A program made the position numbers and the translations under genes. Positions 1,732-24,674 of a DNA stretch of 28,217 bases are shown here, one piece after another. A model generated the notes under the pieces. That model was not told the origin of the DNA. It worked only from the letters and a program-made list of their open reading frames with translations, and did not search any database. The stretch comes from Thermotogota bacterium (GTDB lineage Bacteria > Bipolaricaulota > Bipolaricaulia > UBA7950 > UBA9294): the NCBI GenBank assembly GCA_039679545.1, contig JBDKUT010000045.1, positions 1 to 28,217 of the forward strand, written 5' to 3'. Position 1 is the first letter of the stretch; each line of letters begins with the position of its first letter.

Positions 1732-2022
1732 GTGACGTACACCCCAGTCCCGGTACGCAACTTCGACCGCATCAAGAAGAAGCTTCCGGCTGCTCTGAGA
1801 GCCGAGGTGGATCGGCAGGTCCGTGTGATCTGCGACAATCCTCTGCTCGGCGAAGAGAAGACGGGGGATCTGCGTGGCGTGTTCGTCCACAAGTTTCGAG
1901 CGGCAGGCAAGCTTTACCTTCTTGCCTACTGGCCTGACGCGGCCGGACGGACCATCACCCTCCTTGCTCTTAGCGGGCACGAGAACTTCTACCGCGACCT
2001 CAAGCGGTATCTCGCGAGCTGA
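1732..2022 (+). CDS. RelE/ParE-superfamily toxin
   Basis: ICDNPLLGEEKTGDLRGVFVHKF...YLLAY...LLALSGHENFYRDLK; GTG start at 1732 inferred. Confidence 0.85.
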   Translation: MTYTPVPVRNFDRIKKKLPAALRAEVDRQVRVICDNPLLGEEKTGDLRGVFVHKFRAAGKLYLLAYWPDAAGRTITLLALSGHENFYRDLKRYLAS

Positions 2023-2059
2023 GCCACGCGAGAGCCTGCCCATTGCGAAACTCGTAGCT

Positions 2060-2155
2060 CAGCATTCGTTGAGTTCATAGCGTTCTTGGAGTTTGTAGGG
2101 TTCCGTAACTGCAGCCGCGAACTGCGAACTACCCACTCCGCGCCCAACGAACGGC
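2060..2155. repeat. 9-mer and 7-mer degenerate tracts
   Basis: TTCGTTGAG TTCATAGCG TTCTTGGAG TTTGTAGGG TTC, then CGAACTG CGAACTA..., then CCCAACGAACGG. Confidence 0.6.
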
Positions 2156-2313
2156 CCGCGGAGCCGCCTGTTCGCCGCTGGGCGCCATGCTTAGTTCGGC
2201 GGCGGGCCATGAGGCTCAGCCGGATCCCCGCTCGCGGCCGTTGACAGGTGCGCCCGGATGCGATACGGATGTAGGTGTTCCGGATAGGCCAGAGAAAGGG
2301 AGGCGCAGATCGC

Positions 2314-3729
2314 ATGACCAAGCGATGGGTTGTGCTCGGTGGTTTGACCGTAGGATTGGCGCTTCTTGTCTGCGGGTGTAGCTGGCTGCAGCCAGCGTCG
2401 GTGACGGAAACGGCCGCTGACCCCGTGCGAACGATCGAACTGGTCGTCGACGGCCCGCTCAGTGATGCAGTTGTCGCAGAGCTGGCGGAGTACGGCCAGG
2501 TGACGCAACGCTTCGACGCGATCGGAGGCGTCATCATGCGGGCCAAGGAGTCTGCGCTCAAGGCGGTGTCGGGCCTGCCCTCCGTCCGTCTCGCGGGGGC
2601 CATTGCGCAACGGCACGCCGACAACTACGCCGGCGGGATCAGCCCCTGGGATCTTGACCTGATGAACGTCACGGATTTCGGCGTGCCGCGGGTCGCGGAG
2701 TACGACGGGAGCGAGGTCTACGTCGCTGTGCTCGACACCGGCCTCGTTCAGAACTGGCGCGAGTACCTCCCCGAAGAGCGCATTGCCGTGCAGTATGCGA
2801 AGGCGTTCAAGAGCGGGGCGAGCGACAACAGCACGGTTGCCGAAGCGACGCACCAGTGGGAGCGGGACACAGAGGCGCACGGCACGCACGTCACAAGCAC
2901 GATCCTCGGCTACTGGATCAAGAGCCTGACGGCTCCGTACGCCGCCAACGGCGTCGCTCCGATGGCGACCGTGATTCCGGTCAAGGTTCTCGGCAACAAC
3001 GGCGGCGGATGGTCGCCGGCGATCGCGGCGGGAATCGTGTACGCCGTCGATCTGAAGCTTGCGCTGGGTGCGCCGATGGTGATCAACATGAGCCTCGGCG
3101 GTTCGCAGCTCTCGCCGCTTGAAGCGGCCGCGATCGACTACGCGATGGACAACGGCGTCGTCGTCGTCGCCTCCGCCGGCAACGAGGGTGAAGCCGGGAT
3201 GGGCTATCCTGGGGCTTACGCCCCCGTCGTCAGCGTCGGCGCGATCGGCTGGGTCGACGAGTGGGTCGGCGGCGGCGGGTTCTGGAGACGAAACGTCGCG
3301 GAGCCGGCGTCGGACGAAGCCCTGCAGGACATGGTCTACGTGTGCGACTTCAGCAGCCGAGCGCTGACCGGTCAGGACCTGGACGTTCTCGCGCCGGGAA
3401 GCTGGATCGTCGGACCGTACCTCGGCTCCGGCGCCGCGACGCCTCCTCTGTGGGCGAACGGCCAACCCGGCGAGTACTACTTCCTCGGCGGAACCAGCAT
3501 GGCTTCGCCGCACGTCGCCGGCCTGGTTGCGCTGATGTTCGACAAGAACCCGGCCCTGGCAGCGGCGGATGTCGAAGGCATCCTCGAGGGTGCAGCCATC
3601 GACCTCCCCGCCGGATCGCGAACCGTCGACGACGGCTCGGGCGTGCAAGTTGAGTTCAGCTGGGGCGACGACGCCACCGGAGCGGGCATCGTGCTCGCCG
3701 ACGAGGTCCTCGATGCCGTAGCGCCGTAG
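2314..3729 (+). CDS. S8 (subtilisin-like) serine peptidase, probable lipoprotein
   Basis: Catalytic motifs VAVLDTG, HGTHV, SAGN and GTSMASPHVAG; signal peptide ending LVCGC; RBS GGGAGG before ATG2314. Confidence 0.92.
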   Translation: MTKRWVVLGGLTVGLALLVCGCSWLQPASVTETAADPVRTIELVVDGPLSDAVVAELAEYGQVTQRFDAIGGVIMRAKESALKAVSGLPSVRLAGAIAQRHADNYAGGISPWDLDLMNVTDFGVPRVAEYDGSEVYVAVLDTGLVQNWREYLPEERIAVQYAKAFKSGASDNSTVAEATHQWERDTEAHGTHVTSTILGYWIKSLTAPYAANGVAPMATVIPVKVLGNNGGGWSPAIAAGIVYAVDLKLALGAPMVINMSLGGSQLSPLEAAAIDYAMDNGVVVVASAGNEGEAGMGYPGAYAPVVSVGAIGWVDEWVGGGGFWRRNVAEPASDEALQDMVYVCDFSSRALTGQDLDVLAPGSWIVGPYLGSGAATPPLWANGQPGEYYFLGGTSMASPHVAGLVALMFDKNPALAAADVEGILEGAAIDLPAGSRTVDDGSGVQVEFSWGDDATGAGIVLADEVLDAVAP

Positions 3730-3752
3730 GATACCGCGGCACAAGAAGGATC

Positions 3753-3790
3753 ACGGCGCGGCCCGCGTGGGCCGCGCCGTCTCTCTTTCT
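3753..3790 (+). terminator. Intrinsic terminator-like hairpin after the peptidase gene
   Basis: Perfect 12-bp stem ACGGCGCGGCCC-GCGT-GGGCCGCGCCGT followed by the pyrimidine tail CTCTCTTTCT. Confidence 0.75.
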
Positions 3791-3877
3791 CCGTACGCCA
3801 CGCACGCGAGAGTCGCACCAGAGTAGTCTCACATCCCTGTCGGACTCCCGGGCACATCGGTCCCAAGCCTAGGAATC

Positions 3878-4058
3878 GTAGCGAGTGGCCTGTGGCTCGT
3901 GGATTGTGGGAACTGCGTCCTGTCAGTGCTTCTCCTACGTGCCACAAACCACGTGCTACCAGCCGCCTTTCACAACCCAACGAACCGAATGAACTGGGCA
4001 CCGCGCACTGCGAACCAGTCGACGAACCTAGACGAGCGCGTCGAACTGCGCACCATGA
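3878..4058. repeat. Inverted 7-mer arms plus 9-mer/7-mer tracts
   Basis: TAGCGAG TGGCCTG TGGCTCG TGGATTG TGG versus CCACAAA CCACGTG CTACCAG CCGC; then CCCAACGAACCGAATGAAC. Confidence 0.6.
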
Positions 4059-4083
4059 CGCTTGAGCACTAAAGCGTTATAAT
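4055..4083 (+). promoter_or_regulatory. Promoter with embedded operator for TA module 2
   Basis: ATGACG-17 nt-TATAAT; inverted repeat ACGCTT(4058-63)...AAGCGT(4072-77). Confidence 0.6.
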
Positions 4084-4101
4084 GCCTCCCGGTGATCCGT
4101 G

Positions 4102-4326
4102 ATGACGAAGCGAGCGACGATCTACTTGGAGCCGGAGCTCCACACCGCGCTCAAGGTGAAGGCGGCCCATACCGAGCGATCGATGTCAGAACTCGTGAAC
4201 GAGGCAGTGCGCGAATCCCTTCGCGAGGACCAAGAGGATCTCCAGGCGTTTGCCGACCGCGCTGCCGAGCCGACGATGTCGTACGAAGCCCTCCTCGCCG
4301 ACCTCAAGGCGCATGGCAAGATATAG
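4102..4326 (+). CDS. CopG/RHH antitoxin
   Basis: KRATIYLEPELHTALKVKAAHTERSMSELVNEAVR is an RHH pattern; overlaps the downstream toxin. Confidence 0.85.
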   Translation: MTKRATIYLEPELHTALKVKAAHTERSMSELVNEAVRESLREDQEDLQAFADRAAEPTMSYEALLADLKAHGKI

Positions 4327-4573
4327 ACTCGAGATCAAGAAGAGCGTAGCCAAGGATCTACGCGGCATACCCCAAAAACACGTTGCGCGGATTCTGAAAC
4401 GGATTGCGGCATTGGCTGACGAGCCCCGAGGGCCCGATTCCGAGAAGCTGTCCAGCCGAGAGCTCTACCGAGTGCGACAAGGCAGCTACCGGATCCTCTA
4501 CGAGATCCGAGATGCTAACCACGTCGTTGTGGTCGTCAAGGTCGCCCATCGGTCCAAAGCCTACGGCTCGTAG
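4313..4573 (+). CDS. relE: RelE/StbE family mRNA interferase toxin
   Basis: MARYRLEIKKSVAKDL...EKLS...YRVRQGSYRILYEI...VVVKVAHR. Confidence 0.88.
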   Translation: MARYRLEIKKSVAKDLRGIPQKHVARILKRIAALADEPRGPDSEKLSSRELYRVRQGSYRILYEIRDANHVVVVVKVAHRSKAYGS

Positions 4574-4678
4574 ATGAGCTACTCGATTTCTCTGAGTTCG
4601 TTGAGTCCAGCAACCGGGTGGATAAGCCTCGAGTTGCCTTTCGGGACTCAAAGAACCCAACGAACTGGCCTCGGTCCA

Positions 4679-4750
4679 GGAGTTCCGCATCCGCCCTTTG
4701 CCTGCGGAACTCCCGAGCTGTCGGTCAACGCAGATCGACCGACAGCCACG
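4679..4750. repeat. Double-hairpin REP-like element (family A), copy 1
   Basis: GGAGTTCCGCA/TGCGGAACTCC stem, CGA linker, GCTGTCGGTC-10 nt-GACCGACAGC stem; 4703-4750 is identical to 8839-8886. Confidence 0.85.
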
Positions 4751-4881
4751 GACTGCGCACTGCGCACCCAACGAACCCGACGAATGCATCCCCACATGCC
4801 ACGAGCCGCCTCTCGTGAGCCAACGAACTCAACGAACGGCCCCTTGGCAACCGCCCTAACTTCCTCCATCCTTGTCACGTG

Positions 4882-6195
4882 ATGAAAGGCTTGAGCCGCT
4901 CCACTACGTGCACACTGAGGGGCAGATTGCCGATCGCCGCCACGATAGCGGTTGCCACCGTCCTCGCAGCCGGCGGATGCTTCCTCTTTCCCAACACCCT
5001 CCCAATCGCGGAGATCGACGCCGATCCCACGATGGGGATTGCGCCGCTCACCGTCGAGTTCGATGCCGGTGAATCCTACGATCCCGACGGCACGATCCGG
5101 CGGTACGAGTGGGATTTCGGCGACGGACACGAAGGCGCCGGAGTGCGGATCGACCACACCTACACGGCCGCCGGAGAGTACGAGGCCACCCTCACCGTAG
5201 TCGACAAGCGCGGAGGCCGGGCGACCGGCTCCGTCGAGATCGCCGTGCGCGGAGCGAACGAGCTACCTGTCGCCGCGTTCTCGGCGTACCCGTCTCCCGC
5301 CTATCCGCGGCAGACCGTCCGCTTTAACGCCGGCGCGTCCTACGACCCCGACGGGGAGATCGAGTCGTATGCGTGGAGCTACGGAGACGGCTCGACCGGC
5401 ACCGGTGCATCCGCATTCCACCAGTACGCCTCCGTAGGCTCCTACACCGTCACCCTCACAATTCGCGACAACGACAACGGCGAGAGGACCGCGACCACTA
5501 CAATCACCATCGTGACGACCATCGACACCTCCGGGACCGTGTCGCGGCACTACGAGTGGGAGTACGGCGGGCAGGATGAGAGCTGCGACCTCGAGATCTC
5601 GCTCGACCTCTACCGGTACTACAAGTCCCAGCCGCGCACCGCGTTCGTGAACAGAGACTACGACGAGTACGTCCTCGACCCGCTCGACGACGACGACCTC
5701 GAAGTCATCACCCAGGAGATCCTGAGCGGCGCGGGCGGCGACTACCACGCCCAGCTCGAGAACGCCCTCTTCTTCGTCCAGCACTGCGTCGAGTACGTCA
5801 ACGACCCGTACTGGTACGAGTACCCCCGCTACCCCATCGAGGTGCTCGTCGACCTGATCGGCGACTGCGAAGACACCGCCATCCTCTATACCAGCCTCGT
5901 CCGCACCCTCGGCCACGGAGCCCTCATGGTCGCCGTAGACACCAGCGGCGACGGCGTCGCCGACCACATGATCGCGTGGGTTCCCGTCGAGCAGAGCTTC
6001 ATCACCGCGCATCCCGACCGCAGCTTCTGGGACTACCACGGCAAGGTGTACGCCTTCGCCGAGACCGCCGTCGAAGGCGGCTACGTCCCCCTCGGCGTCG
6101 ACCCGTGGGGCCTGACGGCGGAAGACATCGACACTGTGTACGACGTGTCCAGTATCGACAGGGCTCCGCGAGCCCTGCTATTGCGAGGGCCGTAG
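4882..6195 (+). CDS. Lipoprotein with two PKD domains and a C-terminal transglutaminase-like (Cys-His) domain
   Basis: Lipobox LAAGGC; SYDPDG..YEWDFGDG and SYDPDG..YAWSYGDG PKD repeats; YPRYPIEVLVDLIGDCEDTAIL...HMIAW; start codon uncertain. Confidence 0.8.
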   Translation: MKGLSRSTTCTLRGRLPIAATIAVATVLAAGGCFLFPNTLPIAEIDADPTMGIAPLTVEFDAGESYDPDGTIRRYEWDFGDGHEGAGVRIDHTYTAAGEYEATLTVVDKRGGRATGSVEIAVRGANELPVAAFSAYPSPAYPRQTVRFNAGASYDPDGEIESYAWSYGDGSTGTGASAFHQYASVGSYTVTLTIRDNDNGERTATTTITIVTTIDTSGTVSRHYEWEYGGQDESCDLEISLDLYRYYKSQPRTAFVNRDYDEYVLDPLDDDDLEVITQEILSGAGGDYHAQLENALFFVQHCVEYVNDPYWYEYPRYPIEVLVDLIGDCEDTAILYTSLVRTLGHGALMVAVDTSGDGVADHMIAWVPVEQSFITAHPDRSFWDYHGKVYAFAETAVEGGYVPLGVDPWGLTAEDIDTVYDVSSIDRAPRALLLRGP

Positions 6196-6426
6196 TTGAG
6201 GAGATGAAGAGCGCTGTTGAGGCGCAGAGAAGCCGGAACCAGTTGTGGACCTGCTCATTGGCGGCTTGGCGCGACGCATTCGCCCAATACCGGCGTCCAC
6301 CGCACGCCGAAGGCCACACGGTCTACCCTCAGGGTCGTCCCTTGACGCAGCGGGCTGCCCCCCGAGTGAGAGACGCAGTCGCATCCATGCTTACTGCGTG
6401 GGCTCAACCCGATGGACACTCGGGGC

Positions 6427-7569
6427 CTACGGCCTCGGGATGAGTTGCGCTGGCTCCTCAAGGATTGCCAGTAGGTCAGTCGCGCAGTACGCGCGATCGC
6501 GCTGGCGGCCGTCGACCGGAGACAGGATGTTCTTGTCCACGAGGATGGAAATAGCGCGCGCCGCCGTCGTTCGCGCCACGCCCAGACGGTCTGCCACGTG
6601 CTTGGCGGTGACAAAGGGGTTCCCCGCAAGAAGATCGACGACTCGTGCGGGCGCGTCCGACCTCACTCCGCGTAGGTCCGCATGCCACTCGAGAACCAGG
6701 TCGCGCATGCGAGCCGCGCGGTCGACAGCGTCTTCCGACTGCCGCGCGACGCCGTTCAGGAAATAGACGAGCCAGTTCGCCCAGTCGGCCGCGCTCGTCA
6801 CCTCGCGCAGGCGGGTGTAGTAGTCGGAGCGGGTCGCCTCGAAGAACGCGCTTAGGTAGAGGAGTGGAGATGGGAGAACCCTGCTGTCTACGAGAAAGAG
6901 GCTGACGAGCAGCCGGCCGACGCGACCGTTCCCATCGAGGAACGGGTGAATCGCCTCAAACTGAACGTGCGCAAGCGCGGCCTGAACGAGTGGAGGGAGC
7001 GAACGATCCTGCAAGAACCGTTCCAAGTCGCGCAAGAGCGCAGGGACACGTGCGGGCGGCGGCGGAACGTACACTGCCGTATGCGGGGTCGAACCGGGAA
7101 GGCCGATCCAGTTCTGGATCGTGCGTACCTTCCCTGGTTGGGCGTGGCCGCCGCGCACCTCGCGCATCAGGAGAGCGTGGACTTCCTTCAGGAGCGAGAC
7201 GGAGAGGCCAAGAGCCGGCAACCGATCGATCCCGTGCTCAAGGGCGGCGACGTAGTTCGCGACCTCGCGCAGGTCTTCGGGACTCCGGTCGACGATCGCG
7301 CCAGCCTCCGCAGCGAGCAGCTCACCCAGCGTAGCCCGCGTGCCCTCGATTCGACTGGAGAGCACGGCCTCTCGCGCAACAAAGGGACGCATGAGGATGT
7401 GCGGATTCGGCAGTCCGCGGCCCTCGCCTGCGAGCCGCCCGATGGCCCGATCTGCGTCCGACATCGCGTGCACGATCTCCCTCGTCCACTCGAGAGTCGG
7501 CGGCAACGGGTTCGGGACGAAAGCCGAGTACCCTTCTTGGCTCTTGATCCACTCCCCTGGCTGAGGCAC
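6427..7569 (-). CDS. fic: Fic family AMPylase with N-terminal inhibitory motif and C-terminal HTH
   Basis: HPFLDGNGRVGR catalytic motif; SSRIEG matches (S/T)xxxE(G/N); C-terminal TAKHVADRLGVARTTA; GTG7569 follows GGAGGAG. Confidence 0.9.
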   Translation of the reverse strand: MPQPGEWIKSQEGYSAFVPNPLPPTLEWTREIVHAMSDADRAIGRLAGEGRGLPNPHILMRPFVAREAVLSSRIEGTRATLGELLAAEAGAIVDRSPEDLREVANYVAALEHGIDRLPALGLSVSLLKEVHALLMREVRGGHAQPGKVRTIQNWIGLPGSTPHTAVYVPPPPARVPALLRDLERFLQDRSLPPLVQAALAHVQFEAIHPFLDGNGRVGRLLVSLFLVDSRVLPSPLLYLSAFFEATRSDYYTRLREVTSAADWANWLVYFLNGVARQSEDAVDRAARMRDLVLEWHADLRGVRSDAPARVVDLLAGNPFVTAKHVADRLGVARTTAARAISILVDKNILSPVDGRQRDRAYCATDLLAILEEPAQLIPRP

Positions 7570-7585
7570 GTCTCCTCCCGTCGCT

Positions 7586-7729
7586 ATGAGCGTAAAGATA
7601 GAATAGCGCACATAACGTTCGATGCCAATGAGCGCACCCCCGTGCTCGACGCATCATAATGAGCGATGAAGGCCGAATGCGCTCATAACGTCCTCGCCCT
7701 GTGAGCGGAACCCGCCGCATTCCGTTCAC
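7586..7729. promoter_or_regulatory. Array of four operator-like inverted repeats upstream of fic
   Basis: RTGAGCG-N14/15-CGYWCAY-like boxes starting at 7586, 7628 (degenerate), 7659 and 7701. Confidence 0.6.
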
Positions 7730-7807
7730 GCGGCCCTGTTTCCCACATGCCGCCTCTCGTAACCCAACGAACTGCCCAGCCGACCAGGAGAAGCCAGCCC
7801 CACACAA

Positions 7808-7920
7808 GGAGTTCGGCGACGTGTCGCGGACACCGACCGAACTCCCGAGCTGCTCGAAAACCTGAGAGATCGAGCAGCCCAACTCCCCGAGCTACTCAGC
7901 ACCGCAGCCCGCTGAGTAGC
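7808..7920. repeat. Family A hairpin cluster, copy 2 (three hairpins)
   Basis: GGAGTTCGG/CCGAACTCC; GCTGCTCGA-12-TCGAGCAGC; GCTACTCAGC-10-GCTGAGTAGC. Confidence 0.85.
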
Positions 7921-8018
7921 CACGAACCCAACGAACTCAACGAACTCAACGAATCGGCCAGCCTCCGAGCCACGCACCGCGAACCGCGAACCGCGCACTC
8001 CGAGCCCAACGAACCCAA
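7921..8018. repeat. 9-mer then 7-mer tandem tracts
   Basis: CACGAACCC AACGAACTC AACGAACTC AACGAA; CGAGCCA CGCACCG CGAACCG CGAACCG CGCACTC CGAGCCC. Confidence 0.8.
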
Positions 8019-8088
8019 GTGACTCGCGCGCACACCGGGAACGCTATAATCCTTCAAGCTCGTTCGGCATGGGCGGAGCGGAGGCGCG

Positions 8089-8328
8089 ATGAAGTTCTAT
8101 TCATTCCAGATCGTCATCGAGAAAGAGAAGGACGATCCAGGCTACTACGCCTACAGCCCAGCTCTTCCCGGGTGCTTCAGCAACGGAAAGACCGTCGAAG
8201 AGGCGAAGCGGAACATCCGTGAGGCGATTGAGCTGCACATCCAATCCCTCCTAGCGCACGACCAAGACGTTCCGCAAACCGGTCAGCTCGTCCACGTCGA
8301 AGAGCTCACCGTCGGCGTCCCAGAATGA
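8089..8328 (+). CDS. hicB: HicB family antitoxin (short form, no DNA-binding domain)
   Basis: YYAYSPALPGCFSNGKTVEEAKRNIREAIELHI; TATAAT at 8045-8050 upstream. Confidence 0.9.
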   Translation: MKFYSFQIVIEKEKDDPGYYAYSPALPGCFSNGKTVEEAKRNIREAIELHIQSLLAHDQDVPQTGQLVHVEELTVGVPE

Positions 8329-8552
8329 CCCGAGCGCCGCAGATCACCGCTCGGGAGCTTCTCGCATTCCTCAAGAGGAAAGGCTTCGTCGAAGAGAGAC
8401 GCTCCGGCTCGCATCTCACGCTCCGGCACCCAAACAGCGGCAAGACCGTCACTCTGCCGGTGCACACCGGCTGCGATCTCGGCCGAGGACCTGCCGTACG
8501 AGTCCTGCGGGACGCCGGGTTCTCGCTGGACGACTACCTCGCTGCCCGCTGA
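8325..8552 (+). CDS. hicA: HicA family toxin
   Basis: GFVEERRSGSHLTLRH...TVTLPVH dsRBD-like HicA motif; ATGA overlap with hicB. Confidence 0.9.
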   Translation: MTRAPQITARELLAFLKRKGFVEERRSGSHLTLRHPNSGKTVTLPVHTGCDLGRGPAVRVLRDAGFSLDDYLAAR

Positions 8553-8626
8553 TCCGCCCCGCGCACCCCGTCCACGGACCTGGAGTTGCCTCCTTGAGTC
8601 GTCGCCTCCGGCGCAGTCCCACCCAA

Positions 8627-8886
8627 GGGGTTCGGTAACGTGTCGCGAAGGCCGTCCGAACTCCCGAGCTGCTCGAGAACCCAGGACATCGAGCAGCCCA
8701 CCTCCCCGAGCCGTCGGTTCCGTGAGAAGAAGCAGCCGAAGCAGCGGCTGCTTCCAAGCTGCTCAGACCGGGCGTTGCCGAGCAGCCATCGACTCGACAG
8801 CCACGGACACCTTCCAGGAGTTCCGCGACCAGTACAGGTGCGGAACTCCCGAGCTGTCGGTCAACGCAGATCGACCGACAGCCACG
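8627..8886. repeat. Family A hairpin cluster, copies 3 and 4 (BIME-like mosaic)
   Basis: Stems at 8627-8664, 8668-8697, 8729-8754, 8758-8786, 8817-8849 and 8853-8882. Confidence 0.85.
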
Positions 8887-8924
8887 CACTCCGCGCCGCC
8901 GCCTCTCTCCCACTTTCCCCACTG

Positions 8925-8960
8925 TTGGAATCGACGTACGCCTACGCTAGAATCGCGTAG
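8925..8960 (+). promoter_or_regulatory. Putative hsdR promoter
   Basis: TTGGAA-17 nt-TAGAAT; the -10 is bracketed by the inverted repeat CTACGC/GCGTAG. Confidence 0.55.
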
Positions 8961-9017
8961 ATCCCGTCTGGAGGGCTGTCTGAGCGATAGACTCGCGCGG
9001 GCAGACAATGCCGACGA

Positions 9018-11870
9018 ATGACCACCCCTGAGCAACGCGCCCGCGAAGTGATCGACAAGAAGCTCGCCGAGTCCGGCTGGGTTGTGCAGAGCCGGGACGA
9101 GATCAATCTCTCCGCCGGGCCGGGCGTCGCGGTGCGTGAGTTCGTTCTCGAACCTGGTCACGGCCACGCGGACTACCTTCTCTTCGTCGACGGGAAGGCT
9201 GTCGGAGCGCTCGAAGCGAAGCCTGAGGGGTATCCCTTGACGAGCGTCGAGGGGCAGGGTGCGAAGTACACGGCGGGCCTTCCGTACTCGATCTCGGCGT
9301 CCGCGCCGGTGAGCCCGCTGCCGTTCGTCTATCTCAGCACCGGGAGCGAGACGAAGTTCGCGAACGGCCTTGATCCCGAGCCACGCAGCCGGAGCATCTT
9401 CCAGTTCCATCGCCCTGAGACTCTTCGCGCCTGGGTCGAAGCCGACACGCTGCCCCAGTGGATCCACGACTGGCATCCTGAGACGGGCGAGTACGCCCAC
9501 AACCCGAAGCGCCCATCCTCCCTGCGCGCACGCCTGCAGGCGATGCCGCCCGTCCTGCGCGGCAGCCTCTACGACAACCAGTTCCGCGCCGTCGCGAACC
9601 TAGAGAAGTCGCTCCGCGAGGATCGGCCGCGCTCGCTCATCCAGATGGCCACCGGCTCCGGCAAGACGATCATGGCGATCACGTCCATCTACCGCCTGAT
9701 CAAGTACGCCGGCGCCTCGCGCGTCCTCTTCCTCGTCGACCGCAAGAACCTCGGCGAGCAGGCCGAGAAGGAGTTCGGGAACTACCGCACGCCCGACGAC
9801 CACCGCAAGTTCACCGAGCTGTACAACGTCCAACGGCTCCAGTCGAACACCATCGGCGCGTCGAGCAAGGTCGTCATCTCGACCATCCAGCGCCTCTACT
9901 CGATGCTCCAGGGAGAGGCCGAACTCGATCCCGCGCTCGAGGAGGAGTCGCTGTGGGAAAAGGACGGCGCGCTGTCGAAAGAAGCGCTGCCCGTCGTCTA
10001 CAACCCGGCCATCCCGCCTGAGCACTTCGACGTCATCTTCGTCGACGAGTGCCACCGCTCGATCTACTCCTTGTGGCGCCAGGTACTCGACTACTTCGAC
10101 GCCTACCTCGTCGGCCTCACCGCCACGCCCGCCGCGCACACCTACGGCTTCTTCCAGCGGAACCTCGTGATGGAGTACAGCCACGAGGAGGCCGTCGCCG
10201 ACAACGTCAACGTCGACTTCGAGGTCTACAACATCCGCACCCGGATCACGAAAGAAGGCGCGACCATCCGGCCCGGCGACTACCAACTCGGCATCCGCGA
10301 TCGGCAGACCCGCCGCGTACGTTGGGAGCGGCCCGACGAGCCCCTGACCTACAGCGCCAACGACCTCGACCGAGCCGTCGTCGCCGAGGACCAACTCCGG
10401 ACGATCATCAGGACCTTCCGCGACAAGCTGCCCACCGAGATCTTCCCCGGCCGACGCGAGGTGCCGAAGACGCTCATCTTCGCCAAGGACGACTCGCACG
10501 CCGAGGACATCGTCAAGATCGTGCGCGAGGAGTTCGGCAAGGGAAACGACTTCTGCCAGAAGATCACGTACAAGTCGACGGACAAGAAGCCGTCCGACCT
10601 CATCCAGGAGTTCCGCGTGAGCTACAACCCGCGCATTGCCGTGACCGTCGACATGATCGCGACCGGCACCGACATCAAGCCGATCGAGATCGTCATGTTC
10701 ATGCGCAGCGTCCAGAGCCGCGTCCACTTCGAGCAGATGAAAGGCCGCGGCGTGCGTGTCGTCGACCAAACGACGCTCCAGGGCGTGACGCCCGAGGCGC
10801 AAGCGAAGACGCACTTCGTCATCGTCGACTGCGTCGGCGTCACCGAGGGACCGCTCTCCGACACCCAGCCGCTCGAACGCAAGAAGACGATCTCGTTCGA
10901 CGCGCTGCTCGAGCACGTCGCTCTCGGCGGAACCGATCCGGACTACCTGTCGTCGCTCGCCGCCCGCCTCGCGCGGCTCGACCGCCAGTGCGGCGACGAA
11001 GAGAAGAAGCGGATCAGCGATGCGGCCGGCGGCACGAGGCTGGCCGACATCGTCCACGGTATCGTCCGTGCCCTCGATCCCGACGAGCAGGCGGCCGTGG
11101 CCCGCATCGCGCAGAGCCTGCCCGAGGACGTCGAACCGAAGCCTGCTGACGTGGACGCTGCAGCGAAGACGCTGCTCATGGAGGCGGCGGCGCCGCTTGC
11201 GACGAAGCCCGCGCTACGGCAGCTCCTGATCGCGACGAAGCGGTCGTTCGAGCAGATCATCGACGACGTCAGCCTTGACGAGCTTCTCGAGGCCGGCACC
11301 TCCGAAGAAGCGCGCGACAAGGCGCGCGCTCTTGTGCGCTCCTTTGAGCAGTTCCTCGCCGAGAAGAAGGGCGAGATTGAGGCGCTTGAGTTCTTCTACT
11401 CGCAGCCGTACAAGAGGCGGATCTCGTTCGCCGACATCAAGGCCTTGCACGCGGCGATCAAGGCGCCGCCGCGGCTCCTGACGCCGGAGCGGCTGTGGGC
11501 GGCCTACAAGCTCCTCGAGCAGAACAAGGTGCGTGGCGCGAGCAGCCAGCGGAAGCTGGCCGACATCGTCTCGCTCGTGCGGTTCGCCCTGCACCAAGAA
11601 CCAGAGCTGGTTCCCTACGCAGACGGTGTACAGGTTCGCTTCGAGCATTGGATGGCGACGCAGGAGTTGGGCGGGCGGTCGTTCACCGTCGAGCAGCGGC
11701 GGTGGTTGGAGATGATTCGCGATCACATTGCGCAGAGTCTTGAGATCACGCCCGACGACTTCGGCTACGCTCCGTTCGTTGAGGAGGGCGGTCTGGGCAA
11801 GGCACGACAGGTTCTGGGCCCGGATCTCACGAAGCTGATGGATGAGCTGAATGGAGCGCTCGTCTCATGA
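9018..11870 (+). CDS. hsdR: Type I restriction enzyme R subunit (EcoEI/EcoAI-like)
   Basis: ADYLLFVDGKAVGALEAK nuclease motif, QMATGSGKT, DECHRS, LTATP, MIATGTD, QMKGRG, and an EcoEI-type C-terminus. Confidence 0.95.
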   Translation: MTTPEQRAREVIDKKLAESGWVVQSRDEINLSAGPGVAVREFVLEPGHGHADYLLFVDGKAVGALEAKPEGYPLTSVEGQGAKYTAGLPYSISASAPVSPLPFVYLSTGSETKFANGLDPEPRSRSIFQFHRPETLRAWVEADTLPQWIHDWHPETGEYAHNPKRPSSLRARLQAMPPVLRGSLYDNQFRAVANLEKSLREDRPRSLIQMATGSGKTIMAITSIYRLIKYAGASRVLFLVDRKNLGEQAEKEFGNYRTPDDHRKFTELYNVQRLQSNTIGASSKVVISTIQRLYSMLQGEAELDPALEEESLWEKDGALSKEALPVVYNPAIPPEHFDVIFVDECHRSIYSLWRQVLDYFDAYLVGLTATPAAHTYGFFQRNLVMEYSHEEAVADNVNVDFEVYNIRTRITKEGATIRPGDYQLGIRDRQTRRVRWERPDEPLTYSANDLDRAVVAEDQLRTIIRTFRDKLPTEIFPGRREVPKTLIFAKDDSHAEDIVKIVREEFGKGNDFCQKITYKSTDKKPSDLIQEFRVSYNPRIAVTVDMIATGTDIKPIEIVMFMRSVQSRVHFEQMKGRGVRVVDQTTLQGVTPEAQAKTHFVIVDCVGVTEGPLSDTQPLERKKTISFDALLEHVALGGTDPDYLSSLAARLARLDRQCGDEEKKRISDAAGGTRLADIVHGIVRALDPDEQAAVARIAQSLPEDVEPKPADVDAAAKTLLMEAAAPLATKPALRQLLIATKRSFEQIIDDVSLDELLEAGTSEEARDKARALVRSFEQFLAEKKGEIEALEFFYSQPYKRRISFADIKALHAAIKAPPRLLTPERLWAAYKLLEQNKVRGASSQRKLADIVSLVRFALHQEPELVPYADGVQVRFEHWMATQELGGRSFTVEQRRWLEMIRDHIAQSLEITPDDFGYAPFVEEGGLGKARQVLGPDLTKLMDELNGALVS

Positions 11871-19041: not shown

Positions 19042-19101
19042 GAGATCGGGGGACGCGTACCTCAACTCAGCCGAGGTGGGGGAGTTGAGGTATGTGTCCC
19101 C
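19042..19101. repeat. REP-like palindrome (family B), copy 1
   Basis: GAGATCG + GGGGACGCGTACCTCAACTC-13 nt-GAGTTGAGGTATGTGTCCCC (20-bp stem with two G-T pairs). Confidence 0.8.
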
Positions 19102-19191
19102 GCCGCGGGCGGCACGCCGCGAGGGTCTGGTCCTGTATTCCGGTAGTCGAGCACCGCTGTCGCCGATGACGGGCGTGTGGCGAGGGCGTGC

Positions 19192-19268
19192 GGCACGCAC
19201 GAAACACCTGTCAGGTTCGCTAGCTTGTCTGCGAGGGGAACCAGCGCCAGCCGGAGCCCTCGGACGCA
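19192..19268 (-). repeat. Orphan copy of the MBL-hydrolase gene 3' end
   Basis: 19226-19268 is identical (43 nt) to 21079-21121; GGCACGCAC and CCTGTCAG are also shared. Confidence 0.8.
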
Positions 19269-20907: not shown

Positions 20908-21038
20908 CCCGTGCGGTGCGGGAATTCCGGGGACACGATGCCATTCCCGCTGCTCGTGGCGGGCGCTCTTAGGACGCGATCCCGAACTCGCCGATCTGCA
21001 CGCTGCAGACTCGGGTCATGTCCCAGGGGATGGGCGCG

Positions 21039-21180
21039 AGGCACGCACTAGCTGATGCGCCTGTCAGTTCCTCGGGCCTGTCTGCGAGGGGAACCAGCGC
21101 CAGCCGGAGCCCTCGGACGCAATGCGCCCCAAGCCCGGGAACGGCGCATGCGAGAGGAAGACGAGGGCGCCGCTCCGCGC
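21039..21180 (-). repeat. 142-bp displaced duplicate of the MBL-hydrolase gene 3' end and its flank
   Basis: Direct repeat of 21997-22138 with 5 mismatches counted by eye; encodes ARSGALVFLSHAPFPGLG...GPRN*. Confidence 0.92.
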
Positions 21181-21902: not shown

Positions 21903-21963
21903 GAGATCGGGGGGACACGTACTTTGACTCGGCCGAGGCGAGGGAGTTGAGGTACACGTCCCC
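21903..21963. repeat. REP-like palindrome (family B), copy 2
   Basis: GAGATCGG GGGGACACGTACTTTGACTC-13 nt-GAGTTGAGGTACACGTCCCC; downstream GCCGCGG..GCGGCACGCCGC is shared with copy 1. Confidence 0.8.
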
Positions 21964-22021
21964 GCCGCGGATGGCCGCCGCGAGCGGCACGCCGCAAGGC
22001 ACGCACTAGCTGATGCGCCTG

Positions 22022-22873
22022 TCAGTTCCTCGGGCCTGTCCGCGCGGGGAACCAGCGCCAGCCGGAGCCTTCGGACGCGATGTGCCCCAAGCCCGGGAAC
22101 GGCGCATGCGAGAGGAAGACGAGGGCGCCGCTCCGCGCCGCTCGGTCGAACAGTCGGCGCCGCGTGTCCCGGATTCTCTCCTGCGAGGAGTCGTACCCCG
22201 TCCTCCAGGTTGGGTGCTCGACGACGATGGGGTGGAGCACGGTGTCTGCCAGGTGGAGGAGGGTCTCGCCCCTCGAAACGAACTCGACGGCCGTGTGCCC
22301 CAGACGATGGCCGGGTGCAGGGAGAGTCCGCACTCCGGTGACGACCTCGGTCTCGTCGCGCGTGAAGAGGACGCGCCCCTCCAAGAGGCGGGCGAGCGTG
22401 CGGTAGGCCTCGGCATCCGTTGGCGAGCACATGGCCAAGATTCGCTCGGACCTGTATCCGGCCCAGGCTTCTTCCGCCATCACGTGGCGCGCGTTGGGGA
22501 ACGCCAAGCCCCCGTCTGGCGCGATGACGCCTCCGGCGTGGTCGAGGTCGAGGTGGGTGAGGATGACGTACGCGACGCGGTCCGGCTCGACGCCGGCCTG
22601 TCGGAGGGTCAGCAGGAATCGACTCTCGAGTTGATCGGTGCACGGCCCCCAGCCGGGATCGATGACGATCGCGTCGTCTCCGGCGCGAACGAAGAGCCCG
22701 AGGAAGTCGTACGACATCTCCTCCGTCGACCAGCCACGGAGAGCGAGCGCCTCTCGCACTTGAGGGTCGTCGACGTCCGGGAGGAGTTCCCTCACGTGGA
22801 ACCGCTCCGAGGCGTCTCGTATCGCGACGCAGTCGAGGTCCCCGACGCGGAATCGGTAAGCGCTCTCAGTCAT
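22022..22873 (-). CDS. MBL-fold metallo-hydrolase
   Basis: VIDPG, LTHLDLDHAGG, PAPGHRLGH, LADTV, SHAPFPGLG; RBS AAGGAG. Confidence 0.9.
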   Translation of the reverse strand: MTESAYRFRVGDLDCVAIRDASERFHVRELLPDVDDPQVREALALRGWSTEEMSYDFLGLFVRAGDDAIVIDPGWGPCTDQLESRFLLTLRQAGVEPDRVAYVILTHLDLDHAGGVIAPDGGLAFPNARHVMAEEAWAGYRSERILAMCSPTDAEAYRTLARLLEGRVLFTRDETEVVTGVRTLPAPGHRLGHTAVEFVSRGETLLHLADTVLHPIVVEHPTWRTGYDSSQERIRDTRRRLFDRAARSGALVFLSHAPFPGLGHIASEGSGWRWFPARTGPRN

Positions 22874-24571: not shown

Positions 24572-24658
24572 GATCGGGGGACACGTACCCTATCTCCGCC
24601 GTCGCAAGTCCGGAGACACGTACCAGAACTCCTGCGTGGAGTTGAGGTCCACCTCCCC
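24570..24658. repeat. REP-like palindrome (family B), copy 3 (composite, two left arms)
   Basis: GAGATCGGGGGACACGTACC...GGAGACACGTACC...GGAGTTGAGGT..TCCCC; overlaps the upstream stop codon. Confidence 0.7.
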
Positions 24659-24674
24659 GACGGAAGGCAGCCCC

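Follow-up and report, generated by a model that had tools for sequence, protein, structure and literature searches.

A gene-less two-hairpin repeat beside tRNA genes and toxin-antitoxin genes in one bacterial family, with the habits of an orphan REP/BIME-like mobile element

The repeat described here was found in a stretch of 28,217 nucleotides (nt), called the window below, which is contig JBDKUT010000045.1 (C45) of the 2.35-Mb assembly GCA_039679545.1 of a Thermotogota bacterium, placed by GTDB in the Bipolaricaulota. It is a unit of two different hairpins without a gene of its own, built as GGAG-stem-loop-stem-CTCC, a linker C-N-A, GC-stem-loop-stem-GC and a closing C, with a total length of 55-95 nt, and it occurs singly, in co-oriented tandem arrays and as inverted pairs. 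The unit moves, being present at a given site in some relatives and absent from it in others, and both of its stems keep pairing while their sequence turns over. It is probably mobile DNA of some kind. With about even confidence it is regarded as copied in the form of folded single-stranded DNA by an HUH (Y1) transposase acting in trans, like the repetitive extragenic palindromic (REP) sequences and bacterial interspersed mosaic elements (BIMEs). Genomes, contigs and loci are cited by their labels in this analysis (G, C and L, respectively) where they have to be told apart.

Exactly six GCT...AGC hairpins with a stem of at least 7 bp are present in the window, starting at 4717, 7849, 7891, 8668, 8758 and 8853, and the positions, stems and loops reported for them in an earlier note made from the letters of the window were all recovered exactly. 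Those at 4717, 7849, 7891, 8668 and 8853 are 30 nt long and that at 8758 is 29 nt long; 4717 and 8853 being identical, five distinct sequences are represented. Each of the six is the second half of a two-hairpin unit. The four GGRGTT...AACTCC partners which the same note had joined to them through CGA were found again (starts 4679, 7808, 8627 and 8817), and the 29-nt hairpin is coupled as well, by a CAA linker to a variant first hairpin. All of the units lie on the plus strand, in three spacers (parE / PKD-domain gene; fic / hicB, divergent; hicA / type I restriction gene). The first spacer holds a complete unit at 4679..4747, composed of the first hairpin 4679-4713, the CGA linker 4714-4716, the second hairpin 4717-4746 and the closing C. 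In the second, a relic 5' arm of a first hairpin, of the GGAGAAGC type (7787..7797, plus strand; from the census and direct reading), stands ahead of a complete unit at 7808..7879 (first hairpin 7808-7845, CGA, second hairpin 7849-7878). A tandem half unit follows at 7879..7921, where the second hairpin 7891-7920 is preceded only by the 3' arm of a first hairpin and the linker, and it abuts three copies of a 9-mer repeat at 7927-7953. In the third, a similar relic arm begins at 8582 and is followed by a complete unit at 8627..8698 (first hairpin 8627-8664, CGA, second hairpin 8668-8697), the variant unit at 8729..8787 (first hairpin 8729-8754, CAA, second hairpin 8758-8786) and a complete unit at 8817..8883 (first hairpin 8817-8849, CGA, second hairpin 8853-8882, the same as 4717-4746). 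The region of the unit 8627..8698 resembles 7795-7892 (85% over 98 nt). When nine stretches were folded against 200 shuffles each, eight were beaten by none or one of the shuffles and the ninth was equalled by four.

For the description of the unit among the relatives, 173 distinct units were gathered by their constant ends only, and 124 of them have the second hairpin. The base directly 3' of that hairpin is C in 124/124. The fixed length claimed in the earlier note was not borne out, the second hairpins ranging from 17 to 39 nt with 30 nt merely as the commonest value (54/124, in a set skewed to 30 nt by the 30-nt patterns with which part of it was fetched). In this genome, 14 of the 27 linker-anchored second hairpins measure 30 nt, and GCT...AGC hairpins counted without context number 14 at 30 nt and 3-14 at other lengths from 18 to 45. 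First hairpins measure 19-52 nt. The 54 copies of 30 nt have 20 different stems around an A-rich and fairly constant loop; the commonest form has a loop of 10 nt, and loops overall run from 3 to >20 nt.

Pairing was estimated for each stem. In the alignment of 41 distinct 30-nt second hairpins, whose rows had been selected for pairing, 96.1% of the cells were paired, 7 of the 10 pairs showed double changes and 0/500 shuffles scored as high; when no pairing was required of the pattern, five congeners gave 16 matches, and in 13 of these the stem can be read by eye. For the first hairpin, in the set gathered by constant ends, Watson-Crick pairing holds at the first inner position in 158 units and at the second in 162, and three consecutive Watson-Crick pairs occur in 91/163, against 11.6 in shuffles (maximum 21 in 1000 shuffles). 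The covariation proposed earlier therefore holds without selection for pairing. Covariation alone is no proof of protein-driven selection, as arm-from-arm copying during replication yields it too.

The linker-anchored census of this genome gave 36 matches on 19 contigs, 22 of them with both hairpins, together with 3 matches in the reversed control and 0 in the base-swapped one, and a few single-hairpin matches may be due to chance. A covariance model of the second hairpin matched 17/151 genomes of the phylum, all in one family of uncultured bacteria. The pattern of first hairpin plus linker matched 31/184, of which 30 belong to that family, with 3 control matches in all; within the family it was found in 5/5 congeners and 8/8 genomes of genus g12, and the sole match in a genome from outside does not fold. 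A metagenome scan added 44 stretches with the unit. In at least five genera, the feet and the 3-nt linker stay the same despite variation in stems and loops, and the copy number of the tandem arrays is variable. Outside the lineage, 2 of 9 matches in the collection of genome contigs were coding chance matches. Three scans of viral contigs gave 6, 0 and 1 matches, all read as chance, for a search that left out one further stem variant, and scans of plasmids and phages gave nothing meaningful. Among the genome and metagenome collections, the short tRNA-type variants were searched within the phylum. No published description of this repeat was found in a comparison made without the consensus lists in the figures and supplements of PMC3733652 and PMC6006769, in which a match to a listed family is conceivable.

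Filled and empty sites were compared by pairwise alignment. Inserts of 86 nt and 179 nt lie between tRNA-Ser and tRNA-Arg genes, and the same genes abut without a spacer in G066 and in this genome; such clean tRNA-junction inserts share no flanking homology. The left end of an IS110 element in this genome carries two units, each in place of 10-26 nt that the form in G001 has, and a congener is without them. In G066 one unit lies inside the 5' end of a TIRYT gene, where it replaces about 14 nt and breaks the gene. At three sites, target DNA was replaced rather than cleanly interrupted. An array stands in the parE-S8 spacer of G001, and window 2020-2165 is without it. Other units were found within GTAG repeats, which form a separate family, and where truncated hicB and ORF6N-like genes end (the ORF6N label being a reading of the translation), and some joints share short words, as at the hicB truncation. 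One low-depth contig of run X2, in which window positions 8678 and 4708 are joined via 20 other letters, with 12 differences, was rejected as a rearrangement of the window, its order of units matching another locus, L032.

The ends of tRNA genes are frequent targets. In this genome, a unit lies within 300 nt of 9/52 tRNA-type calls, which include tmRNA and a few doubtful calls; a tRNA lies within 300 nt in 32/47 loci from relatives, a set in which 20 loci were hand-picked and which hence gives no rate. Most of the tRNA-linked units are co-oriented with the tRNA, and some stop 1-3 nt short of its first base. Ahead of tRNA-Arg, the second hairpin ends 1-4 nt short of the tRNA's first base, and inverted units sit directly behind the CCA of tRNA-Ser, antisense to it. 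Units that follow tRNA-Arg, Gln, Val and Leu, often as tandem copies, have an inverted re-copy of the T arm and 3' end on one side and a direct re-copy on the other; pairs of inverted units are confined to certain tRNA spacers. In several filled sites, 1-4 nt separate the second hairpin's end from the foot of a pre-existing stem, which is the 5' end of a tRNA, the 3' end of a tRNA on the opposite strand or a T arm that had been re-copied, and a stem foot beside the same end of the unit may be the common target feature. All of the unit clusters are intergenic (18/18), their orientation to protein genes is mixed, and 5/18 lie between divergent genes. A likeness of the unit to a tRNA, with linker and second hairpin as the D arm and first hairpin as the T arm, was taken as mere resemblance and dropped because the linker reads CTA, CAA or CGA in similar numbers. 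Two other tRNA loci of this genome were recorded. One is a hairpin array directly upstream of tRNA-Val that copies the start of this tRNA and lacks the feet and linker of the two-hairpin unit (G000 C21:27240-27625), and the other is a tRNA-Asn island with a large serine recombinase, a tyrosine recombinase and an Mrr-like gene (G000 C8:33187-44000; L376, L012).

The REP/BIME-like substrate suggested in the earlier note, here read as copied by an HUH transposase in trans, fits best with the intergenic position, the tandem arrays and the filled and empty sites, less the GT[AG]G tag and the flanking transposase. The habits of the unit are REP-like in that it is lineage-restricted, forms tandem arrays of variable copy number and is nested in GTAG repeats. 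DNA rather than a transcript is indicated by the mixed orientation to genes, the antisense copies behind tRNA-Ser and the lack of a clear G-U strand bias. As precedents, REPs are mobilised in trans and persist after loss of the gene, according to PMC3333891, and an orphan REP superfamily is described in PMC3733652. In such a mechanism, the constant feet and linker would be read by a protein and the stems would need only to pair. The free 3' end behind the second hairpin would be joined to, or prime copying at, the target stem, which would account for the replacement of target DNA, for arrays that grow in tandem and for tRNA ends copied again in either orientation. Co-oriented copies already in place could then offer homology that helps, without directing, the reshuffling of toxin-antitoxin (TA) genes. 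The enzyme may have been lost from these genomes or be unassembled in them.

A number of results weigh against copying by an HUH transposase. The flanks of about 50 Y1 genes from the family were inspected (one locus only in part), and none of these genes lies between a pair of units, so that the flanked REP-associated tyrosine transposase (RAYT) for which the earlier note advised looking was not found among them. The three close unit-Y1 contacts are an insertion into the gene (L118), an upstream tRNA-linked copy (L115) and a copy nested in GTAG repeats (L163). In G005, 21 covariance-model matches were obtained and no Y1 match, and the best assembly, G067, has only TIRYTs, with other repeats. 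The GT[AG]G tag of the GTAG-type REP, BIME and REPIN sequences was found in 17/124 at the second hairpin on the minus strand and in 0/124 at the three other feet. As the second hairpin is absent from 49/173 units, the two-hairpin form is not obligatory. Of the dinucleotides CT and CA at which RAYTs cleave the single strand, CT is not enriched at the junction (36/124, against a background of 30%), no replication-strand bias was detected at contig scale, and no excised or circular form was seen among the assembled contigs.

The Y1 enzymes of the carrier genomes are of three or four types, with GGGGWSAS-type, GTAG-type or no clear repeats in their flanks, and the one Y1 gene of this genome is a TIRYT with its own repeats. 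Since the assemblies are 67-94% complete, the absence of a cognate RAYT is not proven. Orphaning of repeats does occur here, because G067 keeps GTAG repeats and the matching RAYT is not in its assembly, in parallel with what PMC3333891 reports for E. coli. GTAG-tagged REPs are also present in this genome (G000 C135, C126, C163, C17), and the RAYT matching them was found only in relatives (L016-L018, L114, L163).

A further-reaching proposal, tentative and possible rather than probable, is that feet and linker identify the two-hairpin donor to an unnamed enzyme, which grafts it at the foot of practically any existing stem without destroying essential RNAs. Polarised arrays that collect and reshuffle TA modules without an integrase would be built in this way, and the unit would represent a new class of miniature mobile DNA reading shape on both sides. 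Its stem targets would be tRNA arms, the non-coding end of IS110, other repeat families and copies of the unit itself.

It is rather unlikely that no dedicated enzyme is involved and that host replication and repair suffice, with fold-back template switching at stems making and perfecting the hairpins and with gene conversion and unequal exchange spreading the copies via short homologies. Such an origin is consistent with the tRNA ends copied again, inverted and direct, around many units, the replacement of target DNA at three sites, the short words shared at some joints such as the hicB truncation and the failure of every candidate enzyme to track the repeat. Against it stand the feet and linker, constant over at least five genera despite changing stems and loops, the invariant C behind the second hairpin and the tRNA-junction inserts that lack shared flanking homology.

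Movement of the unit by another enzyme, whether a serine recombinase, an IS110 recombinase, a reverse transcriptase, a small nuclease or a protein of no named family, is decidedly unlikely. Non-HUH partners are plausible because other orphan repeats here flank GIY-YIG and four-helix-bundle genes, and units lie in the IS110 left end in genomes of several genera. Serine recombinases were found in 17/74 genomes, with the repeat within 1.5 kb at 0/26 loci, and in G066 a serine recombinase island has pushed a pre-existing array away from its tRNA. The IS110 type is present in 22/184 genomes and, with the query used, in 0/8 of the repeat-rich genus g12, and most of its copies are without units. No reverse transcriptase over the cut-off was found in 5 carriers. 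Small GIY-YIG genes carry other repeats and none tracks the unit, nor do the four-helix-bundle and GxxExxY genes of this genome. Clustering of the neighbouring proteins showed that only shared loci and TA genes recur beside the repeat, and no unnamed gene does.

Several observations on these gene families were made along the way. Inverted CGTC-type palindromes, of the REP superfamily for which PMC3733652 reports no transposase, stand on either side of a stand-alone small GIY-YIG gene (L272, L303; G118, G158), and in two genera four-helix-bundle genes contain inserted small GIY-YIG genes that have short inverted repeats of their own (L271, L302, L304, L312). In several genomes, an IS110 element of the phylum is located in TIRYT terminal repeats, always at one point (L396, L398, L399, L401, L404, L415, L416, L417), with a relic in this genome (G000 C125; L048). 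Words in the conserved left non-coding end of the element match both this target and the element's own end, in the manner of a bridge RNA.

That the units are kept as RNA, either as modules of tRNA precursors or mRNA ends which guide processing or protect transcripts or as small RNAs, is hardly probable. In its favour are the units near the 9/52 tRNA-type calls, the prevailing co-orientation with the tRNA and approach to within 1-3 nt of its start, and the excess of G-T over A-C in the second stem (27 vs 9). In the first stem, A-C exceeds G-T (20 vs 6); the wobble pairs thus lean to opposite strands in the two stems and no strand is singled out, and the G-U strand bias is not clear (12 vs 6, p 0.24). 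Close relatives have empty sites, copies behind tRNA-Ser are antisense, and the gene contexts are divergent and mixed. The structured non-coding RNA considered in the earlier note corresponds to no known one, Rfam 15 giving 0 matches in the window and only tRNAs over the threshold in 7 repeat-related loci. Contigs from RNA runs hardly cover the units. On sequence evidence, a discrete RNA appears disfavoured by the mixed orientation to genes, and some copies may have a secondary role as RNA.

The distribution of the unit among TA genes bears on a reading of it as an attC-like site, by which an integron-type system captures or reorders TA cassettes; this is very improbable. On metagenome contigs and in three genomes, units stand among HicBA, VapBC, MNT-HEPN, MNT-HepT, DUF2281-PemK and RHH-ParE modules, which are arranged in another order and direction from strain to strain. 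TA genes lie within 400 nt of units in 23/35 metagenome loci, and all units are co-oriented in 19/20 array loci though the modules vary in order and direction, the loci in both counts being kin and not independent. Among 164 breakpoints, 32 fall in units, against 9.5 expected by length; within non-coding DNA alone the excess is small (32 vs 21.6, p 0.018, loci not independent), and 78 fall in other spacer DNA and 34 in genes. As most breakpoints are outside the unit, it is not an attC-like site, and the scatter largely refutes such a function. Many modules meet without a unit between them, and in this genome only 4/14 TA-like genes are near a unit. A loss of parDE at a unit in G001 was rejected, since that genome retains a 3' remnant of parE and both ends of the loss lie outside the unit. 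The attC-like folded site of the earlier note also fails for lack of an integron integrase in the carriers and of a fixed crossover point: the integrase (TIGR02249 over the cut-off) is full length in 3/71 genomes, all of which are without the repeat. In G066, a TIRYT gene has the 3' fragment of an integron integrase gene beside it (C46; L112, L243). The repeat marks TA shuffling and probably aids it, and it does not define TA cassettes.

Plain intrinsic terminators, to which the stable G+C-rich stems in spacers, some of them behind stop codons, might point, have next to no probability, as none of the 7 terminator-like sites at window 3700-9100 is a unit, no T run follows on either strand and 5/18 clusters lie between divergent genes.

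The window itself is a TA hot spot, its hicBA, fic and parDE genes being located elsewhere in relatives. By Pfam, the unit at 4679 has a pair of RHH antitoxin and ParE toxin upstream (4099..4573, plus strand) and a PKD-domain protein with a weak transglutaminase-like match downstream (4879..6195, plus strand). A Fic-domain protein (6427..7611, minus strand) diverges from hicB across the array at 7808, and the hicB-hicA TA pair (8089..8552, plus strand) has co-oriented repeat arrays on both sides. Positions 1487-28216 are rich in TA and defence genes (Pfam), namely two RHH-ParE pairs, Fic, HicBA, two MazEF pairs, HigA and MNT-HEPN-like pairs, and further a type I restriction system, Mrr and a PRTase-domain gene. 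In the right half, TA genes are accompanied by TIRYT-type repeats instead of the unit. This second repeat family (19046-19113, 21908-21975, 24574-24662), which separates the TA genes there, corresponds to the repeats at the ends of short TIRYT genes in relatives (L025, L213). A direct repeat of 146 nt, 96% identical, surrounds the higA gene (21035-21180 and 21993-22138), and its core is found again at 19207. The 9-mer repeat, often tandem and on the same strand as the units, occurs at 627-645, 2143, 3976, 4656, 4767, 4828, 7763, 7927-7953 and 8005 and has six letters in common with the loop of the 30-nt hairpin. In G005 (L425) it flanks, in inverted orientation, a four-helix-bundle gene which was not found in the present assembly.

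Among known systems, integron attC sites and CALIN arrays are likewise structured sites of variable sequence, co-oriented among TA modules. The unit differs from them in having no fixed crossover point, in not being present as one site per cassette and in carriers without an integron integrase. The rtT repeat behind tyrT of E. coli is a tRNA-tail repeat, and with this type the unit has in common that tandem, hairpin-rich copies follow a tRNA gene and that each of them closes with the tRNA 3' end copied again. It is set apart from it by giving no Rfam match over the threshold and by a core that also occurs far from tRNA genes, as in the window. The terminal inverted repeats of TIRYTs (consensus GGGGWSAS, as given in PMC3733652 and PMC6006769) are found in the same genomes and at the same hot spots, and in a few genes (L025, L124, L125) the outermost part of the repeat resembles a first-hairpin arm; the unit has no GGGGWSAS core, however, and in none of these genes do a linker and second hairpin come after the flanking repeat. 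The CGTC-tagged REP superfamily is likewise an orphan palindromic family, reported in PMC3733652 without a dedicated tyrosine transposase and with a short C-rich unpaired tail. By the same source its loops are of 4-5 nt, compared with 3 to >20 nt here, and here CGTC stands at a stem foot in only 1-2/124 units and the unit has two hairpins.

The closest likeness is to the E. coli REP/BIME sequences with TnpA-REP (PMC3333891, PMC8266576) and the Pseudomonas REPINs (PMC3337134), which are short, intergenic, lineage-restricted palindromes in tandem arrays that vary in copy number between strains, have arms that vary yet pair, are thought to move in trans and persist without the gene. The unit departs from them in joining two different hairpins in tandem by a 3-nt linker rather than a REP and its inverted copy, in flanking no transposase gene and in its strong link to tRNA gene ends. 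Neither the GTAG class nor the CGTC class of REPs was matched. The repeat is thus best described as an orphan REP/BIME-like mobile repeat of a new type, which is real, covarying and mobile, unusual in design and directed to tRNA ends, and which marks TA hot spots reshuffled without an integron. The choice of targets by REP-like repeats and the reason why some have no known transposase are open questions according to PMC8266576 and PMC3733652. With clean filled and empty sites, constant feet around free stems and a preference for tRNA ends, the rules for donor and target are readable from genomes, and a candidate enzyme is testable on short oligonucleotides. If the mover proves to be an ordinary RAYT or TIRYT, one more REP type is added; if not, a structure-guided insertion enzyme is indicated.

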